Shown here piece after piece: positions 12,411 through 19,640 of a DNA stretch of 64,000 nt. The stretch is from Escherichia coli (GTDB lineage Bacteria; Pseudomonadota; Gammaproteobacteria; Enterobacterales; Enterobacteriaceae). A model generated the notes under the pieces. It did not search any database and was not told where the DNA came from. It worked only from the letters and a program-made list of their open reading frames with translations. Within the stretch, counting starts at the first letter, position 1, and each line of letters begins with the position of its first letter. Both the position numbers and the translations under genes were made by a program. The stretch is taken from assembly GCF_003334305.1 (NCBI RefSeq), contig NZ_QOWS01000005.1; one strand, written 5' to 3'.

Positions 12411-12845
12411 TTACGGCAGGACTTTCTTAAGCAAATGCTCAAGTGTTGCCACTTCGTCCGCCGTCAGGTTTTTTGTTAATTCTTGGTGCAGGTCCTGGCC
12501 AACTAATTGATGGCATTGTTCACATATTGCCGCGCCGCTGGTGGTAAGTTTTACCAGTACGCCGCGCTTATCATTCGGGTTCGGCAACCTTTCAACCCAG
12601 CCTTTACAGACCAGGCGATCCAGCATACGGGTGAGTGCTCCCAGGTCGACCGACAACACTTTTTTCAGTTCAACCGGAGTAATACACGCCGCGCAGCGGA
12701 TAGAGCAGAGCACCTTAAACTGTGCCGCGGTAATATCCAGCGGAGACAGATACTCGTTAAGCAGACGATCTTTCTTCTGATTAACCATATGGATTAAGCG
12801 ACCCAATGGAATAATTTCATTGAACAGATCGCTGGTACTTTTCAC
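12411..12845 (-). CDS. marR: MarR repressor (144 aa, GTG start)
   Basis: Translation [33 protein letters not shown]... matches MarR. Confidence 0.95.
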
Positions 12846-12850
12846 ATTAG

Positions 12851-12898
12851 TTGCCCTGGCAAGTAATTAGTTGCAGGGGATAATATTGCCCAGGCAAG
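12851..12898 (-). promoter_or_regulatory. marO: two MarR operator palindromes (site II 12851-12862, site I 12887-12898) with the -10 TATTAT (12880-12885) between them
   Basis: Minus-strand reading TTGACT-17 bp-TATTAT with the -35 at 12903-12908 (just outside this span); palindromes TTGCCAGGGCAA and TTGCCTGGGCAA seen directly. Confidence 0.8.
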
Positions 12899-12919
12899 TA
12901 TAAGTCAAATAAATGAATT

Positions 12920-12944
12920 GACCGATGCCACGTTTTGCTAAATC
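12920..12944 (-). promoter_or_regulatory. marbox (MarA/SoxS/Rob binding site) upstream of the marRAB promoter
   Basis: Minus-strand reading GATTTAGCAAAACGTGGCATCGGTC matches the mar marbox sequence as I recall it. Confidence 0.7.
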
Positions 12945-13056
12945 GGTTCAAGTTTTGGTCAATGCGATGCAAGGTTAGCTAAAGAGTGACACTTTATCCT
13001 TGTTTACCCCTTATACTTTTCGCTGATAACCCAGATACACAGGATAACAACCACCA

Positions 13057-13722
13057 ATGTTAGATTTGTTTAAAGCAATTGGCCTGGGGCTGGTGGTGTT
13101 ACTGCCGTTAGCTAACCCATTAACAACTGTCGCGTTATTTCTTGGCCTGGCAGGCAACATGAACAGTGCCGAACGTAATCGTCAGTCGTTGATGGCCTCG
13201 GTGTACGTATTTGCCATCATGATGGTGGCGTATTACGCCGGGCAACTGGTGATGGATACATTTGGCATTTCGATTCCCGGTCTGCGAATTGCAGGCGGCT
13301 TAATCGTCGCGTTTATCGGTTTTCGGATGCTCTTTCCGCAACAGAAAGCGATTGATTCACCGGAGGCGAAAAGCAAGTCGGAAGAGCTGGAAGATGAACC
13401 CAGTGCCAATATTGCCTTTGTGCCGCTAGCAATGCCAAGTACCGCTGGTCCGGGAACCATAGCGATGATTATTAGCTCGGCGTCCACAGTGCGTCAGAGT
13501 TCAACCTTCGCTGATTGGGTACTGATGGTTGCGCCGCCGCTGATCTTTTTCCTGGTGGCGGTTATTTTGTGGGGAAGCCTACGCAGCTCCGGCGCAATTA
13601 TGCGGCTGGTGGGCAAGGGTGGCATTGAAGCGATCTCCCGTCTGATGGGATTCCTGCTGGTATGTATGGGTGTGCAGTTTATTATTAACGGCATCCTGGA
13701 AATCATTAAAACGTACCATTAA
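13057..13722 (+). CDS. marC: MarC-family inner-membrane protein (221 aa)
   Basis: Divergent from marR; multi-TM protein of the expected length. Confidence 0.9.
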
Positions 13723-13746
13723 AAAAGGCCCGAATGGGCCTTTCAA

Positions 13747-14937
13747 CTATTGCGTCTGTTCTTCGAGTGTCACTGGCCAGCGGCGAAATATAATGATTGA
13801 CCAAATTAACGCGGCAAAAGCAGGCACCGCGCCCACATAACCAATCATCGACATTGACCAGTGCAAACTCACCTGATTACCTACCAACGCACCCGCCCCG
13901 ATTCCAATATTAAATATGCCGGAGAATAGCGCCATCGCGACGTCGGTAGCATCTGGTGCCAGCGCCAGCACTTTAACCTGCATACCAAGCCCGATGATCA
14001 TCATCGCGATCCCCCAGAAAATACTCAGCACCCCGAGGTGTATTTCACTGTTCGCCGCAGGTAACAGCAATGCCAGGCACACCAGCAACAGCGCAATCGC
14101 CGTACTCACCAACGCAGACGCATACTGATTACCCAGTTTACCGAAAATCACGCTGCCAATAATGCCCGCACCACCGAGTAATAACAGTAATGCCGTGGCA
14201 AAGTTGGCGCTGAATCCCGCAATGTTTTGTACAAAAGGCTCGATATAGCTGTATGCCGTGTAATGGGCGGTGACAACCACCACAGTTAACAAATAAATGC
14301 TCATCAATGCCGGGCGGCGGAACAATAGCGGGAGGCTTTTCAATGAACCGGAATGCTCACTGGGCAGTAAGGGAAGTAACTTAATCAGGCACAAAAGGGT
14401 GATAAGCGCCCCAATACCAATCGCGAAGAAGGTCATTCGCCAACCGAAATACTGGCCCACAATGCGCCCGAGAGGTAAACCTAAGACCATCGCCAGTGCT
14501 GTACCGGTGGCAATTAAACTCAATGCCTGTGCTCGCTTCCCGGCCGGAGCCATACGGATCGCCAGAGACGCCGTAATCGACCAGAAAATCGCATGTGCAA
14601 AAGCCACACCAATGCGACTGATCACCAGAACGGTAAAGCTCCACGACAAAAACGACAGTACGTGGCTGGCAATAAACACCACAAACAGGCAGATCAGTAA
14701 TTTGCGCCGTTCAACCTGACTGGTCATTAACATAAAAGGCAATGACATTAGCGCTACTACCCATGCGTAAATGGTCAACATGATGCCGACCTGAGCGGTT
14801 TGCATGTGAAAACTTTGCGCAATGTCAGAGAGCAGGCCAACAGGGACAAATTCGGTGGTGTTGAAGATGAAGGCGGCGACTGCCAGCGTAACGACCCGTA
14901 GCCACGCCACTTTGCGGGAAACAGTGTTTGTTGTCAT
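13747..14937 (-). CDS. sotB: MFS sugar efflux transporter SotB/YdeA (396 aa)
   Basis: 12-TM MFS protein; position adjacent to marC. Confidence 0.85.
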
Positions 14938-15086
14938 AACAGATTATCGGGTGAGTTGCGAAAAAGTGATGAAATGATCTTAAAACGGTTAATGATGTGA
15001 ATACAATGCATTTGTGATCTGGATCGCGTTTTCCGTTTCTCTGACGCTGATTCTTTCACGCGTCAGAGAGTCGGTAACATCACGGT

Positions 15087-16202
15087 TTAATGACGTTCAG
15101 GGAGGTCTGGCGTTTTGGAGGTTGCGGGTATAGGTGGTCTGACAGGGGAGCGAGGCCTGTTTTTCACCAGGTCTTCGTGAGTAACTTTTGGCGGCGTTTC
15201 ATTTTTTACAAAAAGTTTGAGGGTCCTGCGCGCCATATGTTTGATAATTTTATCATCACTTAATGATGCTGGCATCAACACGTCATTCAAATCACTTTCA
15301 TTGGGATTCATAAATTGGTGATAGTGCAATAACATATTGGCGAAAAATAAAAACAAGTCCTGAAAATGAGGAGATTCTTGTTCTGCTAAAAGGGATAAAA
15401 AGCAGATGCAGACTTCGGGTAGTACATGTTTGTTAGAACCTAATGAATCCATCAGGCTTTGCAATAAATCCTCTTTTAATTCGCTGTCCGTTATGTCGAG
15501 AATGGCGGTGTTCAAGTTAGGATCTTTATTGACGAACCATCTGTGAACCTCAGAGTTATTCCATAATCGGGGGAGTATGACAAAATTACCGCGAGAGATA
15601 AAATTCAGGACAAGCAAATCAAACTGGCGTAAGTAATCTGCAGCGGTATGGTGATCCGGAGGCAGGGGTTCAATATGTGGTGTATGCGCTCTTTTGATGG
15701 GAGCGCCAGGGTTGATCATCGGAAATTGTTCAATAAAATCATTCAGAAACAGAAAGGGCACACGCTCGACGCCGGTCTGAAATACGCGCCCCATAGTGAC
15801 AGGCTTTGGGTTGGGAGCGCAAAAAATATTAATTTCTCCATCATGGCGAAAATTATCTAAATAAATAGGGCTTAAATTTATTACTACCTGAAATTCAATA
15901 TTTTCTTTGTGTCTTCCATTCTTGACGGGATAAGTGAGTTTAAACTGAACCTTTTCATTGTATAGCGTGTCGTTACCCCGGAAAGAAGTCCTCTGAATAT
16001 ATGATAAGTTATCAAGGTTATTAAATATCTTTTTTGTGGCTGAGTTGATGTTTAAAGACGTGCGCCACTCTTCATCACATATTATGGTACTGAGTGCATC
16101 AATAAAATCCTTTAAAACTTCTTTTACCTGAGGTGCAATATTACGAGCGGGAAAATCATCAGGAAGAGATATATAATTGCTGATGCTTACTGGCGTAACC
16201 AT
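15087..16202 (-). CDS. yneK: Uncharacterised protein YneK (371 aa)
   Basis: Long AT-rich ORF with no recognisable catalytic motif; position between sotB and yneJ. Confidence 0.75.
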   Translation of the reverse strand: MVTPVSISNYISLPDDFPARNIAPQVKEVLKDFIDALSTIICDEEWRTSLNINSATKKIFNNLDNLSYIQRTSFRGNDTLYNEKVQFKLTYPVKNGRHKENIEFQVVINLSPIYLDNFRHDGEINIFCAPNPKPVTMGRVFQTGVERVPFLFLNDFIEQFPMINPGAPIKRAHTPHIEPLPPDHHTAADYLRQFDLLVLNFISRGNFVILPRLWNNSEVHRWFVNKDPNLNTAILDITDSELKEDLLQSLMDSLGSNKHVLPEVCICFLSLLAEQESPHFQDLFLFFANMLLHYHQFMNPNESDLNDVLMPASLSDDKIIKHMARRTLKLFVKNETPPKVTHEDLVKNRPRSPVRPPIPATSKTPDLPERH

Positions 16203-16279
16203 ATTTGCCCCATATAGTCATAAGTCATCGGAACATCACTATATAGGGCATTTGAGCTGCAAGAACTATCAAAAATAGC

Positions 16280-17161
16280 TCATTGGTAACCCTGTTTTGC
16301 CGAGTCAGGCACATCCAGTAGTTGAATAAATGCCTCAAGCGGACGCGTTTTCGCACCACGACGCCAGACCAGCCAGGTTGTTAACCAACGCCATTGCTCA
16401 GCTAACGGCCACGCTTCAACCTGGTGATGCCCCGGCATACTTTCCAGCATAGAGCGTGGAATAAGCGCAATGCCTGCTCCTGCGACCACACAGGCCAACA
16501 TCCCGTGATACGACTCCATCTCGTGAATAGTTCCCGGAGCGGCACCGTCAGCATGAAACCAGCTCTCGAAGTGGCGACGATACGAACAATTGGCGCGGAA
16601 GGCATAAATGTTACTGCCGTTAACCTGACTGGCGCGGATTACTGGCGCATGACCTTGTGGCGTGACGATCATCAGCTCCTCGCGGTATACCGGTATCCCG
16701 TCAATGGCAGTATGGTTAATGGGCCCATCAATAAATGCCGCATTCAGTTTTCCCTCCAGCACTCCTTCCAGCATAGTGCCGGAAGGGCCGGTGGAAAGTG
16801 AAAACTGAATTTTGGGATAACGATGGTTGAATTCCGCCAGCGTGGCCGGAATGCGCACTGCTGCGGTGCTTTCCAGCGAACCAAGAGAAAATAAACCTTG
16901 CGGCTCATCGCCAGCGACAACGCTCCGCGCTTCATCCACTAACGCGAGAATTTGTTGGCTATAGCGTAAAAAGTTATGCCCGGCAGGAGAGAGACGTAAA
17001 CGCTGATTCTCGCGAATAAACAGATCTACCCCCAGTTCTGTTTCCAGCTGGCGTAGACGGGTAGTGAGATTCGACGGCACGCGATGCACTATTGCTGCTG
17101 CCTGGGTTATGCTGCCAGCTTCGGCAACCGCGTTGAACATCTCCAGTTGTGTCAGATCCAT
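16280..17161 (-). CDS. yneJ: LysR-family transcriptional regulator YneJ (293 aa)
   Basis: N-terminal LysR HTH ([23 protein letters not shown]); divergent from sad. Confidence 0.9.
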
Positions 17162-17261
17162 AATATTCTCGATTCGTGAATAAGTGGCTTAATATTATTC
17201 ATTTTAAAGCAAGAGTAAATCTGCGTATCTTCATACCATGACTCATAAAGGAGATACCCCG

Positions 17262-18650
17262 ATGACCATTACTCCGGCAACTCATGCAATTTCAATAAAT
17301 CCTGCCACGGGTGAACAACTTTCTGTGCTGCCGTGGGCTGGCGCTAACGATATCGAAAACGCACTTCAGCTGGCGGCAGCAGGCTTTCGCGACTGGCGCG
17401 AGACAAATATAGATTATCGTGCTGAAAAACTGCGTGGTATCGGTAAGGCTCTGCGCGCCCGTAGCGAAGAAATGGCGCAAATGATCACCCGTGAAATGGG
17501 CAAACCAATCAATCAGGCGCGCGCTGAAGTGGCGAAATCGGCGAATTTGTGTGACTGGTATGCAGAACATGGTCCGGCAATGCTGAAGGCGGAACCTACG
17601 CTGGTGGAAAATCAGCAGGCAGTTATTGAGTATCGACCGTTGGGGACGATTCTGGCGATTATGCCGTGGAACTTTCCGTTATGGCAGGTGATGCGTGGCG
17701 CGGTTCCCATCATTCTTGCAGGTAACGGCTACTTACTTAAACATGCGCCGAATGTGATGGGCTGTGCTCAGCTCATTGCCCAGGTGTTTAAAGATGCGGG
17801 AATCCCGCAAGGCGTATATGGCTGGCTGAATGCCGACAACGACGGTGTCAGTCAAATGATTAAAGATTCGCGCATTGCTGCTGTCACGGTGACCGGAAGT
17901 GTTCGTGCGGGAGCGGCTATTGGCGCACAGGCTGGAGCGGCACTGAAAAAATGCGTACTGGAACTGGGCGGTTCGGATCCATTTATTGTGCTTAACGATG
18001 CCGATCTGGAACTGGCGGTTAAAGCGGCGGTAGCCGGACGTTATCAGAATACCGGACAGGTTTGTGCAGCGGCAAAACGCTTTATTATCGAAGAGGGAAT
18101 TGCTTCTGCATTTACCGAACGTTTTGTGGCAGCTGCGGCAGCCTTGAAAATGGGCGATCCCCGTGATGAAGAGAACGCTCTCGGACCAATGGCTCGTTTT
18201 GATTTACGTGATGAGCTGCATCATCAGGTGGAGAAAACCCTGGCGCAGGGTGCGCGTTTGTTACTGGGCGGGGAAAAGATGGCTGGGGCAGGTAACTACT
18301 ATCCGCCAACGGTTCTGGCGAATGTTACCCCAGAAATGACCGCGTTTCGGGAAGAAATGTTTGGCCCTGTTGCGGCAATCACCGTTGCGAAAGATGCAGA
18401 ACATGCGCTGGAACTGGCTAATGATAGTGAGTTCGGCCTTTCAGCGACCATTTTTACCACCGACGAAACACAGGCCAGACAGATGGCGGCACGTCTGGAA
18501 TGCGGTGGGGTGTTTATCAATGGTTATTGTGCCAGCGACGCGCGAGTGGCCTTTGGTGGCGTGAAAAAGAGTGGCTTTGGTCGTGAGCTTTCCCATTTCG
18601 GCTTACACGAATTCTGTAATATCCAGACGGTGTGGAAAGACCGGATCTGA
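17262..18650 (+). CDS. sad: NAD-dependent succinate-semialdehyde dehydrogenase Sad/YneI (462 aa)
   Basis: Aldehyde dehydrogenase motifs (ELGGSDP, catalytic Cys in QVCAAAKR); AAGGAG RBS 8 nt upstream of ATG at 17262. Confidence 0.9.
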
Positions 18651-18677
18651 CGCGACATATTCAGCTCTGATATACTC

Positions 18678-18697
18678 GCAGGTCTTTTCAGACCTGC
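18678..18697 (+). other. Intercistronic hairpin between sad and glsB (8-bp stem, tttc loop, no T-run)
   Basis: gcaggtct-tttc-agacctgc perfect inverted repeat. Confidence 0.4.
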
Positions 18698-18713
18698 GGT
18701 CCAGGAGTAGAAA

Positions 18714-19640
18714 GTGGCAGTCGCCATGGATAATGCAATTTTAGAAAACATCTTGCGGCAAGTGCGGCCGCTCATTGGTCAGGGTAAAGTCGCGGATTAT
18801 ATTCCGGCGCTGGCTACAGTAGACGGTTCCCGATTGGGCATTGCTATCTGTACCGTTGACGGACAGCTTTTTCAGGCCGGAGACGCGCAAGAACGTTTTT
18901 CCATTCAGTCTATTTCCAAAGTGCTGAGTCTCGTTGTCGCCATGCGTCATTACTCCGAAGAGGAAATCTGGCAACGCGTCGGCAAAGATCCGTCTGGATC
19001 ACCGTTCAATTCTTTAGTGCAACTGGAAATGGAGCAGGGTATTCCGCGTAATCCGTTTATTAATGCTGGTGCGCTGGTGGTTTGCGATATGTTGCAAGGG
19101 CGATTAAGCGCACCACGGCAACGTATGCTGGAAGTCGTGCGCGGCTTAAGCGGTGTGTCTGATATTTCATACAATACGGTGGTAGCGCGTTCCGAATTTG
19201 AACATTCCGCGCGAAATGCGGCTATCGCCTGGCTGATGAAGTCGTTTGGCAATTTCCATCATGATGTGACAACCGTTCTGCAAAACTACTTTCATTACTG
19301 CGCTCTGAAAATGAGCTGTGTAGAGCTGGCCCGGACGTTTGTCTTTCTGGCTAATCAGGGGAAAGCTATTCATATTGATGAACCTGTGGTGACGCCAATG
19401 CAGGCGCGGCAAATTAACGCGCTGATGGCGACCAGTGGTATGTACCAGAACGCGGGGGAGTTTGCCTGGCGGGTGGGGCTACCGGCGAAATCTGGCGTTG
19501 GTGGCGGTATTGTGGCGATTGTTCCGCATGAAATGGCCATCGCTGTCTGGAGTCCGGAACTGGATGATGCAGGTAACTCGCTTGCGGGTATTGCCGTCCT
19601 TGAACAATTGACGAAACAGTTAGGGCGTTCGGTTTATTAA
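18714..19640 (+). CDS. glsB: Glutaminase 2 (GlsB/YneH), 308 aa
   Basis: Serine-dependent glutaminase motifs ([16 protein letters not shown]). Confidence 0.9.

Follow-up and report, generated by a model that had tools for sequence, protein, structure and literature searches.

Analysis of a 64,000-nucleotide stretch of Escherichia coli DNA (contig NZ_QOWS01000005.1; "the window" refers to the whole of it) indicates that yneK, on the minus strand at positions 15087..16202, is probably a selected and vertically inherited orphan carried on a foreign islet, and that its product would be a weakly expressed cytoplasmic binding protein co-transcribed with the upstream regulator gene ptrR (yneJ). An original prediction, made from the letters and their open reading frames alone, had placed here a 371-residue protein of unknown function between sotB and yneJ; its coordinates, gene name and neighbors proved correct against the list of open reading frames (ORFs), RefSeq and NCBIfam NF033404. 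yneK is an already catalogued y-gene whose function is unassigned from its sequence. The present analysis adds the boundaries of the insertion, an age bracket, evidence of selection, recurrent loss, a divergent minor allele, and a conserved 5′ structure.

The yneK frame comprises 371 codons and a stop, with an ATG start at 16202 according to the ORF list, and its assignment as a coding sequence draws further on the NCBIfam YneK equivalog, the substitution ratios described below and the absence of indels. The product matches NF033404 ("putative protein YneK") at 805.5 bits (cutoff 40), with residues 1–371 on model positions 1–371. This is the same gene as UniProt P76150 (b1527); the window allele shares 97.8% DNA identity with K-12, and the flanking genes are those of K-12 MG1655. 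The GC content of yneK is 0.402, with values of 0.48, 0.33 and 0.40 at the first, second and third codon positions (GC1, GC2 and GC3; GC3 0.401), compared with 0.512 for sotB (GC3 0.59), 0.537 for ptrR (0.52), 0.527 for sad (0.49) and 0.513 for glsB (0.52). The low GC1 and GC2 are explained by the abundance of Asn, Ile, Leu, Phe and Pro in the product. A codon composition visibly more AT-rich than that of the flanking genes had been claimed, and the computed GC3 (0.40 vs 0.49–0.59) is indeed distinguishable from theirs. Among the 38 window ORFs of at least 150 residues, yneK has the third-lowest GC and the fifth-lowest GC3; its AT-richness is clear relative to its neighbors and not unique, as the window holds other AT-rich genes.

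Alignment of the E. coli and E. albertii regions to the ptrR–sotB gaps of E. fergusonii and Salmonella mapped the junctions of an AT-rich insert of 1,288 bp at 15028..16315, which has a GC content of 0.408 between flanks of 0.50 and 0.52 and contains the last ~11 codons of ptrR, a 77-nt spacer, yneK and a 3′ hairpin. Without yneK, the gap is 91 bp long in E. fergusonii; in Salmonella enterica it is 115 bp. On the ptrR side, outgroup homology stops ~11 codons ahead of the ptrR stop; on the sotB side it resumes ~60 bp past the yneK stop, just beyond a 9–10 bp stem-loop, and the sotB promoter region (14938–15027, the last ~90 bp before sotB) is ancestral, aligning with both E. fergusonii and Salmonella. 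This stem-loop (15038..15069, minus strand; arms TCTCTGACGC/GCGTCAGAGA, no U-tract) lies at the insert's right end, 18 nt past the stop of yneK. E. albertii and the phylogroup B2 remnant described below retain the stem with a different loop, and a consensus scan gave no terminator call for it. Inspection of the insert ends revealed no integrase, insertion sequence, tRNA site, mobility gene or flanking repeats, and Rfam over 14700–17400 returned no RNA family. An integron cassette, as might be proposed from the short 5′ region, single ORF and 3′ hairpin, was rejected because inspection turned up neither attC core nor inverse-core sites; a GTTACC common to both insert ends in E. coli is not present in E. 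albertii, which also counted against this idea.

The same insert is present in E. albertii, where the gene order ptrR-yneK-sotB-marC-marRAB is that of E. coli. The number of synonymous substitutions per synonymous site (dS) between the two species is 1.18 for yneK and 0.5–1.26 for its neighbors, and this match indicates vertical inheritance since the species split. E. fergusonii was rejected as a close outgroup, since it is no nearer to E. coli here than Salmonella and Citrobacter are: across 13057–19640, its identity to E. coli is 0.82 for Sad (0.81–0.83 in Salmonella/Citrobacter) and 0.88 for SotB (0.88–0.89), while the E. albertii proteins at the same locus are 0.90–0.99 identical. The E. 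fergusonii locus may have a history different from that of the rest of its genome. The gain is therefore only bracketed, after these lineages had split off and before the E. coli/E. albertii split. Collectively, the alignments show a compact block of foreign DNA with a single gene that entered the ptrR–sotB gap before E. coli and E. albertii separated. The older horizontal acquisition suggested in the original prediction accords with the absence of the insert from the E. fergusonii and Salmonella gaps, its synteny in E. albertii and its neighbor-like dS. In Citrobacter sedlakii, the ptrR–sotB gap holds an unrelated PhzF-family gene on the opposite strand (5867–6655 of its locus), which suggests that this site has taken foreign genes more than once.

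The ratio of nonsynonymous to synonymous substitution rates (dN/dS) for yneK is about 0.10–0.29 at every depth of comparison, significantly below neutrality. Between E. coli and E. albertii it is 0.165 vs 0.005–0.058 for the neighbors, which makes it three to thirty times higher than theirs and still far below 1; over all depths, the neighbors range from 0 to 0.12. Across the major allele, the minor allele and E. albertii, yneK lies at 0.10–0.20. Pairs of yneK alleles within E. coli differ by 6–19 nonsynonymous and 13–23 synonymous changes, where neutrality would give ~3.7:1 (binomial p 2e-4 to 3e-7). The major E. coli allele, the minor allele and the E. albertii gene align over 371 codons without a gap, at a protein difference of up to 34%. 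Ratios far below 1 and the lack of indels together indicate that yneK is a functional coding gene, and these comparisons show a frame kept, as judged from its codons, by purifying selection. The minor allele is a second, deeply divergent form of yneK in E. coli, which 19 genomes match at 99% identity or more and 74 others at 95–99%. Its product has 84% protein identity to that of the window allele (dN/dS 0.17), and dS along 12411–18650 of the window peaks at yneK (0.52), with 0.33 for ptrR, 0.21 for sotB, 0.18 for sad, 0.10 for marC and 0.06 for marR. A pattern of this kind points to a segment, centered on yneK, that is either imported or very old.

Selection for the frame coexists with frequent loss of the gene. 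At least 80% of the yneK query is kept in 4,234 of 5,426 complete E. coli genomes, and about 1,190 have lost most of it. In enteropathogenic E. coli (EPEC) E2348/69, which belongs to phylogroup B2, yneK has been cut to a 102-nt 5′ stub joined to its 3′ end, and retention of the stub in B2 indicates secondary deletion rather than primary absence. The O157:H7 gene carries a GAA to TAA change at codon 263 (E263stop), an exact allele found in 309 genomes. S. sonnei has a truncated form of 258 residues that stands for 3,818 sequences. In the type strain of E. albertii, the frame is interrupted by a nonsense codon near residue 95; other strains of this species have an intact gene. These alleles show that yneK is dispensable and has been repeatedly destroyed, often in pathogenic lineages. 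In some strains a bigger deletion reaches into the start of sotB; a canine isolate (NZ_CP116948.1) has lost yneK entirely along with the 5′ end of sotB, and the resulting sotB pseudogene abuts ptrR.

Homology searches assigned YneK to no family other than its own. Pfam gave no match even at E≤10, PADLOC gave none, and NCBIfam gave none apart from the YneK family; the best PHROGs match was not significant (E 0.065), and the PDB, searched both by sequence and by profile, returned only noise (best E 0.32–0.4). A word-indexed search of 5.8 billion clustered proteins found 22 proteins, all of which are YneK from E. coli, Shigella or E. albertii, or its fusions and fragments. Exhaustive phmmer analysis of 1.84 billion representative proteins found 47 matches, all pieces of Escherichia YneK; those at 53–66% identity proved to be frameshifted or error-laden fragments. 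When one genome per species was scanned for YneK peptide patterns (100,044 species), only E. albertii was recovered, together with one E. coli-like contig in a "Caldithrix" metagenome-assembled genome. The YneK on this 31-kb contig ("Caldithrix sp.", SMXE01000224.1) does not differ from the window protein (97% to the query alignment), and contamination of the bin by E. coli is almost certain. No yneK copies and no candidate donor were found in phage records, in true plasmids of PLSDB or in IMG/VR. The three full-length copies in PLSDB all lie on 4.8–4.9 Mb E. coli chromosomes filed as plasmids, and the other three PLSDB records carry just the 34-residue N-terminal YneK remnant.

Structure prediction and Foldseek, proposed with the original prediction as a check, were run and proved uninformative. 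AlphaFold2 with the shallow natural alignment gave a predicted local distance difference test (pLDDT) score of 45.1 for the full-length protein (predicted template-modelling score 0.35) and 44.0 for residues 132–340. The low-confidence model features helices at 24–62, a beta-meander at 66–128, an unmodelled stretch at 130–180, helices at 182–332 and a disordered Pro-rich tail. Foldseek with these models of pLDDT 44–45 found nothing below E 0.03 in the PDB (best 0.034) and only YneK entries in AFDB50; models of such low quality are compatible with a known fold. Matches of the N-terminal alpha+beta part to NTF2, cystatin and UEV-like folds were not accepted (probability 0.5–0.8, E>0.02). YneK is thus, as far as these searches reach, a lineage-restricted orphan without a detectable relative or known domain, and its description as truly uncharacterized stands: no confident remote homology emerged from Pfam, the PDB, PHROGs, PADLOC, phmmer or Foldseek.

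The YneK product has a mass of 42.8 kDa and a grand average of hydropathy of −0.32. Hydropathy analysis revealed no membrane segment (maximum Kyte–Doolittle 19-residue mean 1.17) and neither a Sec signal peptide nor an N-terminal hydrophobic segment, and YneK is predicted to be a soluble protein. The earlier impression that catalytic, transmembrane and signal motifs are lacking agrees with this profile and with the empty Pfam result. Codons 141–216 (15555..15782, minus strand) are the most constrained, with the pattern FQ.G.ERV.FLFLNDFIEQFPMI..G.PIKR.HTPHIEPL.P.HH.AADYLRQFDL.V.NFISRGNFVI, a regional dN/dS of 0.08 vs 0.16–0.37 in the rest of YneK, and a three-way invariance of 75–85%. The Pro-rich tail, codons 349–371 (15090..15158, minus strand), is modelled as disordered and contains blocks that are invariant in the three-way alignment, namely RPRSPV, KTP and the C-terminal RH. 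The residues just before it, 336–348, form the least conserved stretch of the protein (dN/dS 0.37). A role for the tail as an SH3 ligand was rejected, since its PxxPxR motif is lost in E. albertii.

Both neighbors of yneK are co-directional with it. Directly upstream is ptrR (16280..17161, minus strand), which encodes a LysR regulator of 293 residues (ORF list, PMC9068703), and directly downstream is sotB/ydeA (13747..14937, minus strand), which encodes a sugar exporter of the major facilitator superfamily with 396 residues (ORF list and RefSeq). The names ydeA, yneK and ptrR are those that RefSeq gives to the genes on identical or near-identical E. coli chromosomes. The sad ORF of this strain (17238–18650) may start eight codons upstream, which would give 470 residues vs the 462-residue form annotated elsewhere. 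In strain LD67-1, ptrR stops two codons early. A consensus scan of the 77-nt ptrR–yneK spacer detected neither a sigma-70-like promoter nor an intrinsic terminator, and no sigma-54 GG-N10-GC element was seen in it by eye. In RNA-seq of a ptrR deletion, yneK rises by log2 +2.78 (6.9-fold; p 0.032, base mean 14; PMC9068703 Table 5), which fits read-through either from the derepressed ptrR promoter or from the deletion cassette. Genomic SELEX (gSELEX) placed an in vitro NtrC peak in the yneJ–yneK spacer (PMC8743547); the in vitro gSELEX peaks of NtrC, RpoH and RpoS near the spacer are weak. Control of sad and glsB by yneJ, as stated in the original prediction, is documented in the literature (PMC9068703). 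Co-regulation of yneK with these genes, described there as possible but unsupported, is still possible; "unsupported" is now slightly too strong, given the lack of a separating promoter or terminator and the +2.78 log2 rise, which may itself be cassette read-through.

RNA folding of 16188–16282 (minus strand) predicts two hairpins (−30.9 kcal mol−1, z −3.33). The second, in the 5′ untranslated region at 16206..16250 (minus strand), has a 3′ arm that would bury a GGGG Shine–Dalgarno sequence (16208–16211) nine bases before the ATG. Its pairing is kept in 98.6% of alignment cells across seven distinct sequences, with no compensatory changes among them; these sequences are too conserved to provide covariation support. 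The first is an 8-bp hairpin that overlaps the ptrR stop (16263..16281, minus strand; RNA fold and alignment), and all eight of its pairs are invariant in E. coli and E. albertii, which speaks neither for nor against structure. The predicted hairpin structure is therefore compatible with the data, although unproven. Over 16203–16281 the spacer has 94% mean column identity (major and minor alleles, B2, E. albertii), far above synonymous sites, and it is conserved even in the B2 strain without yneK and in E. albertii.

A mechanism is proposed in which yneK would receive very little transcription, most of it reading through from the ptrR promoter, since the spacer has neither promoter nor terminator, and in which translation would be held down by the conserved hairpin that buries the ribosome-binding site. 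YneK would then work in the cytoplasm not as a catalyst but by binding to at least one partner, with the constrained center (residues 141–216) and two invariant blocks of the Pro-rich tail as putative binding surfaces. Its benefit would be limited to some niches, probably commensal gut life, which would explain the loss of yneK in the B2, O157:H7 and Shigella sonnei lineages. Several points weigh against this proposal. The mechanistic half is inference only. A catalytic role built on a novel fold would be compatible with the lack of a recognizable catalytic motif, and the four histidines conserved in HTPHIEPL.P.HH could bind metal. The hairpin shows no compensatory substitution, and its conservation could reflect a DNA-level site. 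The rise of yneK upon ptrR deletion is weak (p 0.032), with the resistance cassette as its possible source, and the niche benefit rests solely on which lineages lost the gene. The literature assigns no function to E. coli yneK and mentions it in screens with non-significant or weak associations. The Keio yneK mutant was not significant in CAST host-factor validation (PMC12757027), and a Scoary association of yneK with bovine cell adherence was weak, with linkage suspected by the authors (PMC11540155). Searching the literature for "b1527" gave noise, and for yneK with H-NS nothing relevant; papers on B. subtilis yneK were set aside as irrelevant to the E. coli gene.

The position of yneK invites the alternative that YneK is an added member of the PtrR regulon that serves putrescine, γ-aminobutyric acid or glutamate nitrogen metabolism, or that modulates PtrR. 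We regard this as unlikely. The gene is co-directional with ptrR, 77 nt downstream with no promoter or terminator between them, it goes up in the ptrR deletion, and the NtrC gSELEX peak lies in the spacer (PMC8743547), but the ptrR-sad-glsB cluster is conserved in Enterobacteriaceae that lack yneK, which implies that the pathway does not need YneK. Neither NCBIfam nor Pfam reveals an enzyme, transporter or DNA-binding signature, no sigma-54 element was seen by eye in the spacer, and the published description of the YneJ i-modulon is silent on yneK. Another alternative is that yneK is a functionless xenogeneic ORF that is silenced, slowly decaying and merely still present. Very low expression (base mean 14), frequent deletion and nonsense alleles, the absence of a significant effect of the Keio mutant in the one targeted test found (PMC12757027) and an AT-richness that persists despite long residence (GC3 0.33–0.40) would all suit this explanation. 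It is nevertheless very unlikely when dN/dS is 0.10–0.29 at every depth and 0.08 in the central segment, and when an AT-rich frame of 371 codons is free of stops and indels after a dS of ~1.2.

A different origin is implied if YneK is a "fossil" substrate or accessory protein of a secretion system of type III (T3SS), comparable to IcaR and IcaT, that was acquired with or for the cryptic ETT2 and is decaying alongside it. The phyletic pattern of yneK matches that reported for ETT2, which was gained before the E. coli/E. albertii split (PMC4700944), is absent from B2, has 36.9% GC and shows widespread attrition (PMC9241512), and IcaR and IcaT are likewise AT-rich, weakly expressed, chromosomal and missing from B2. 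Residues 2–26 of YneK contain 44% S/T/P/N/Q, tied for the highest of the 38 window ORFs, but this crude check of N-terminal composition is non-specific, as cytoplasmic Sad scores equally. The MxiE box GTATCGTTTTTTTANAG has no match in the whole window with up to three mismatches, there is no linkage between yneK and ETT2, E. albertii does not conserve the tail's PxxPxR motif, and no paper linking yneK to type III secretion was found in the literature. Purifying selection on yneK persists among K-12, the window strain, LD67-1 and O157, whereas ETT2 is reported to be degraded in most E. coli, and yneK is inactivated in pathogens with an active T3SS (O157:H7, EPEC E2348/69, S. sonnei and the E. 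albertii type strain). This origin is accordingly quite unlikely, and its weight is similar to that of a further proposal, in which YneK is a normally silent phage-exclusion factor that lowers LamB, so that the complete lambda resistance of the Keio yneJ strain would reflect polar over-expression of yneK and not the missing regulator. YneK would then be the founder of a new, normally silent family that, once induced, blocks lambda through lower LamB. According to PMC2900299, lambda forms no plaques on the Keio yneJ strain, whose lamB mRNA is lowered; its passages on yneJ describe no complementation, and the authors remark that yneJ never turned up across decades of lambda genetics. yneK is 6.9-fold up in the ptrR deletion, and the paper on the PtrR regulon reports no link of lamB or malT to PtrR (PMC9068703). 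PADLOC has no match for YneK, however, and yneK occupies a fixed chromosomal site rather than a variable defense island. The same polar read-through would also raise sotB, whose sugar exporter could lower the inducer of the maltose regulon, and the phenotype is explained just as simply by a secondary mal mutation in the Keio strain. As phage exclusion is derived from two papers rather than from sequence, we consider it highly improbable.

A selected orphan that binds partners in the cytoplasm is therefore the explanation that we favor. yneK remains among the K-12 y-genes without a homologue, a domain or a predicted fold, and the analysis narrows the question of its function without solving it. 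It suggests a selected gene rather than junk, which entered once, before the E. coli/E. albertii split, is probably expressed as the tail of the ptrR transcript and has been repeatedly discarded by pathogenic lineages. Polar effects on yneK or sotB may account in part for phenotypes ascribed to the Keio yneJ strain, such as lambda resistance and tetracycline tolerance.

Several known systems resemble yneK. IcaR and IcaT (PMC9241512) are also AT-rich (~35% vs 40% GC for yneK) single-gene chromosomal acquisitions of unknown origin, barely expressed in E. coli, present in most phylogroups and missing from B2, and they have been called possible fossil genes. They differ in having a MxiE box, which yneK lacks, and in having been shown to be secreted; they are weakly homologous to a regulator and a transposase, whereas YneK is similar to no other protein, and the yneK stub in B2 proves secondary loss, a further difference from IcaR and IcaT. 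ETT2 shares with yneK an inferred gain before the species split, AT-richness, absence from B2 and mutational attrition (PMC4700944, PMC9241512), but it is a ~30-kb island at tRNA-glyU, while yneK sits on an unlinked islet of 1.3 kb, and selection on yneK continues in strains such as K-12, whereas ETT2 is degraded in most E. coli according to the literature. Xenogeneic AT-rich islets of enterobacteria with silencing of the H-NS type are like yneK in a GC content ~10 points under that of their flanks, very low expression, restriction to one lineage and the lack of a known function. It departs from many of these islets in lacking a mobility gene, a tRNA site and end repeats, and yneK has been stably syntenic since before the species split.

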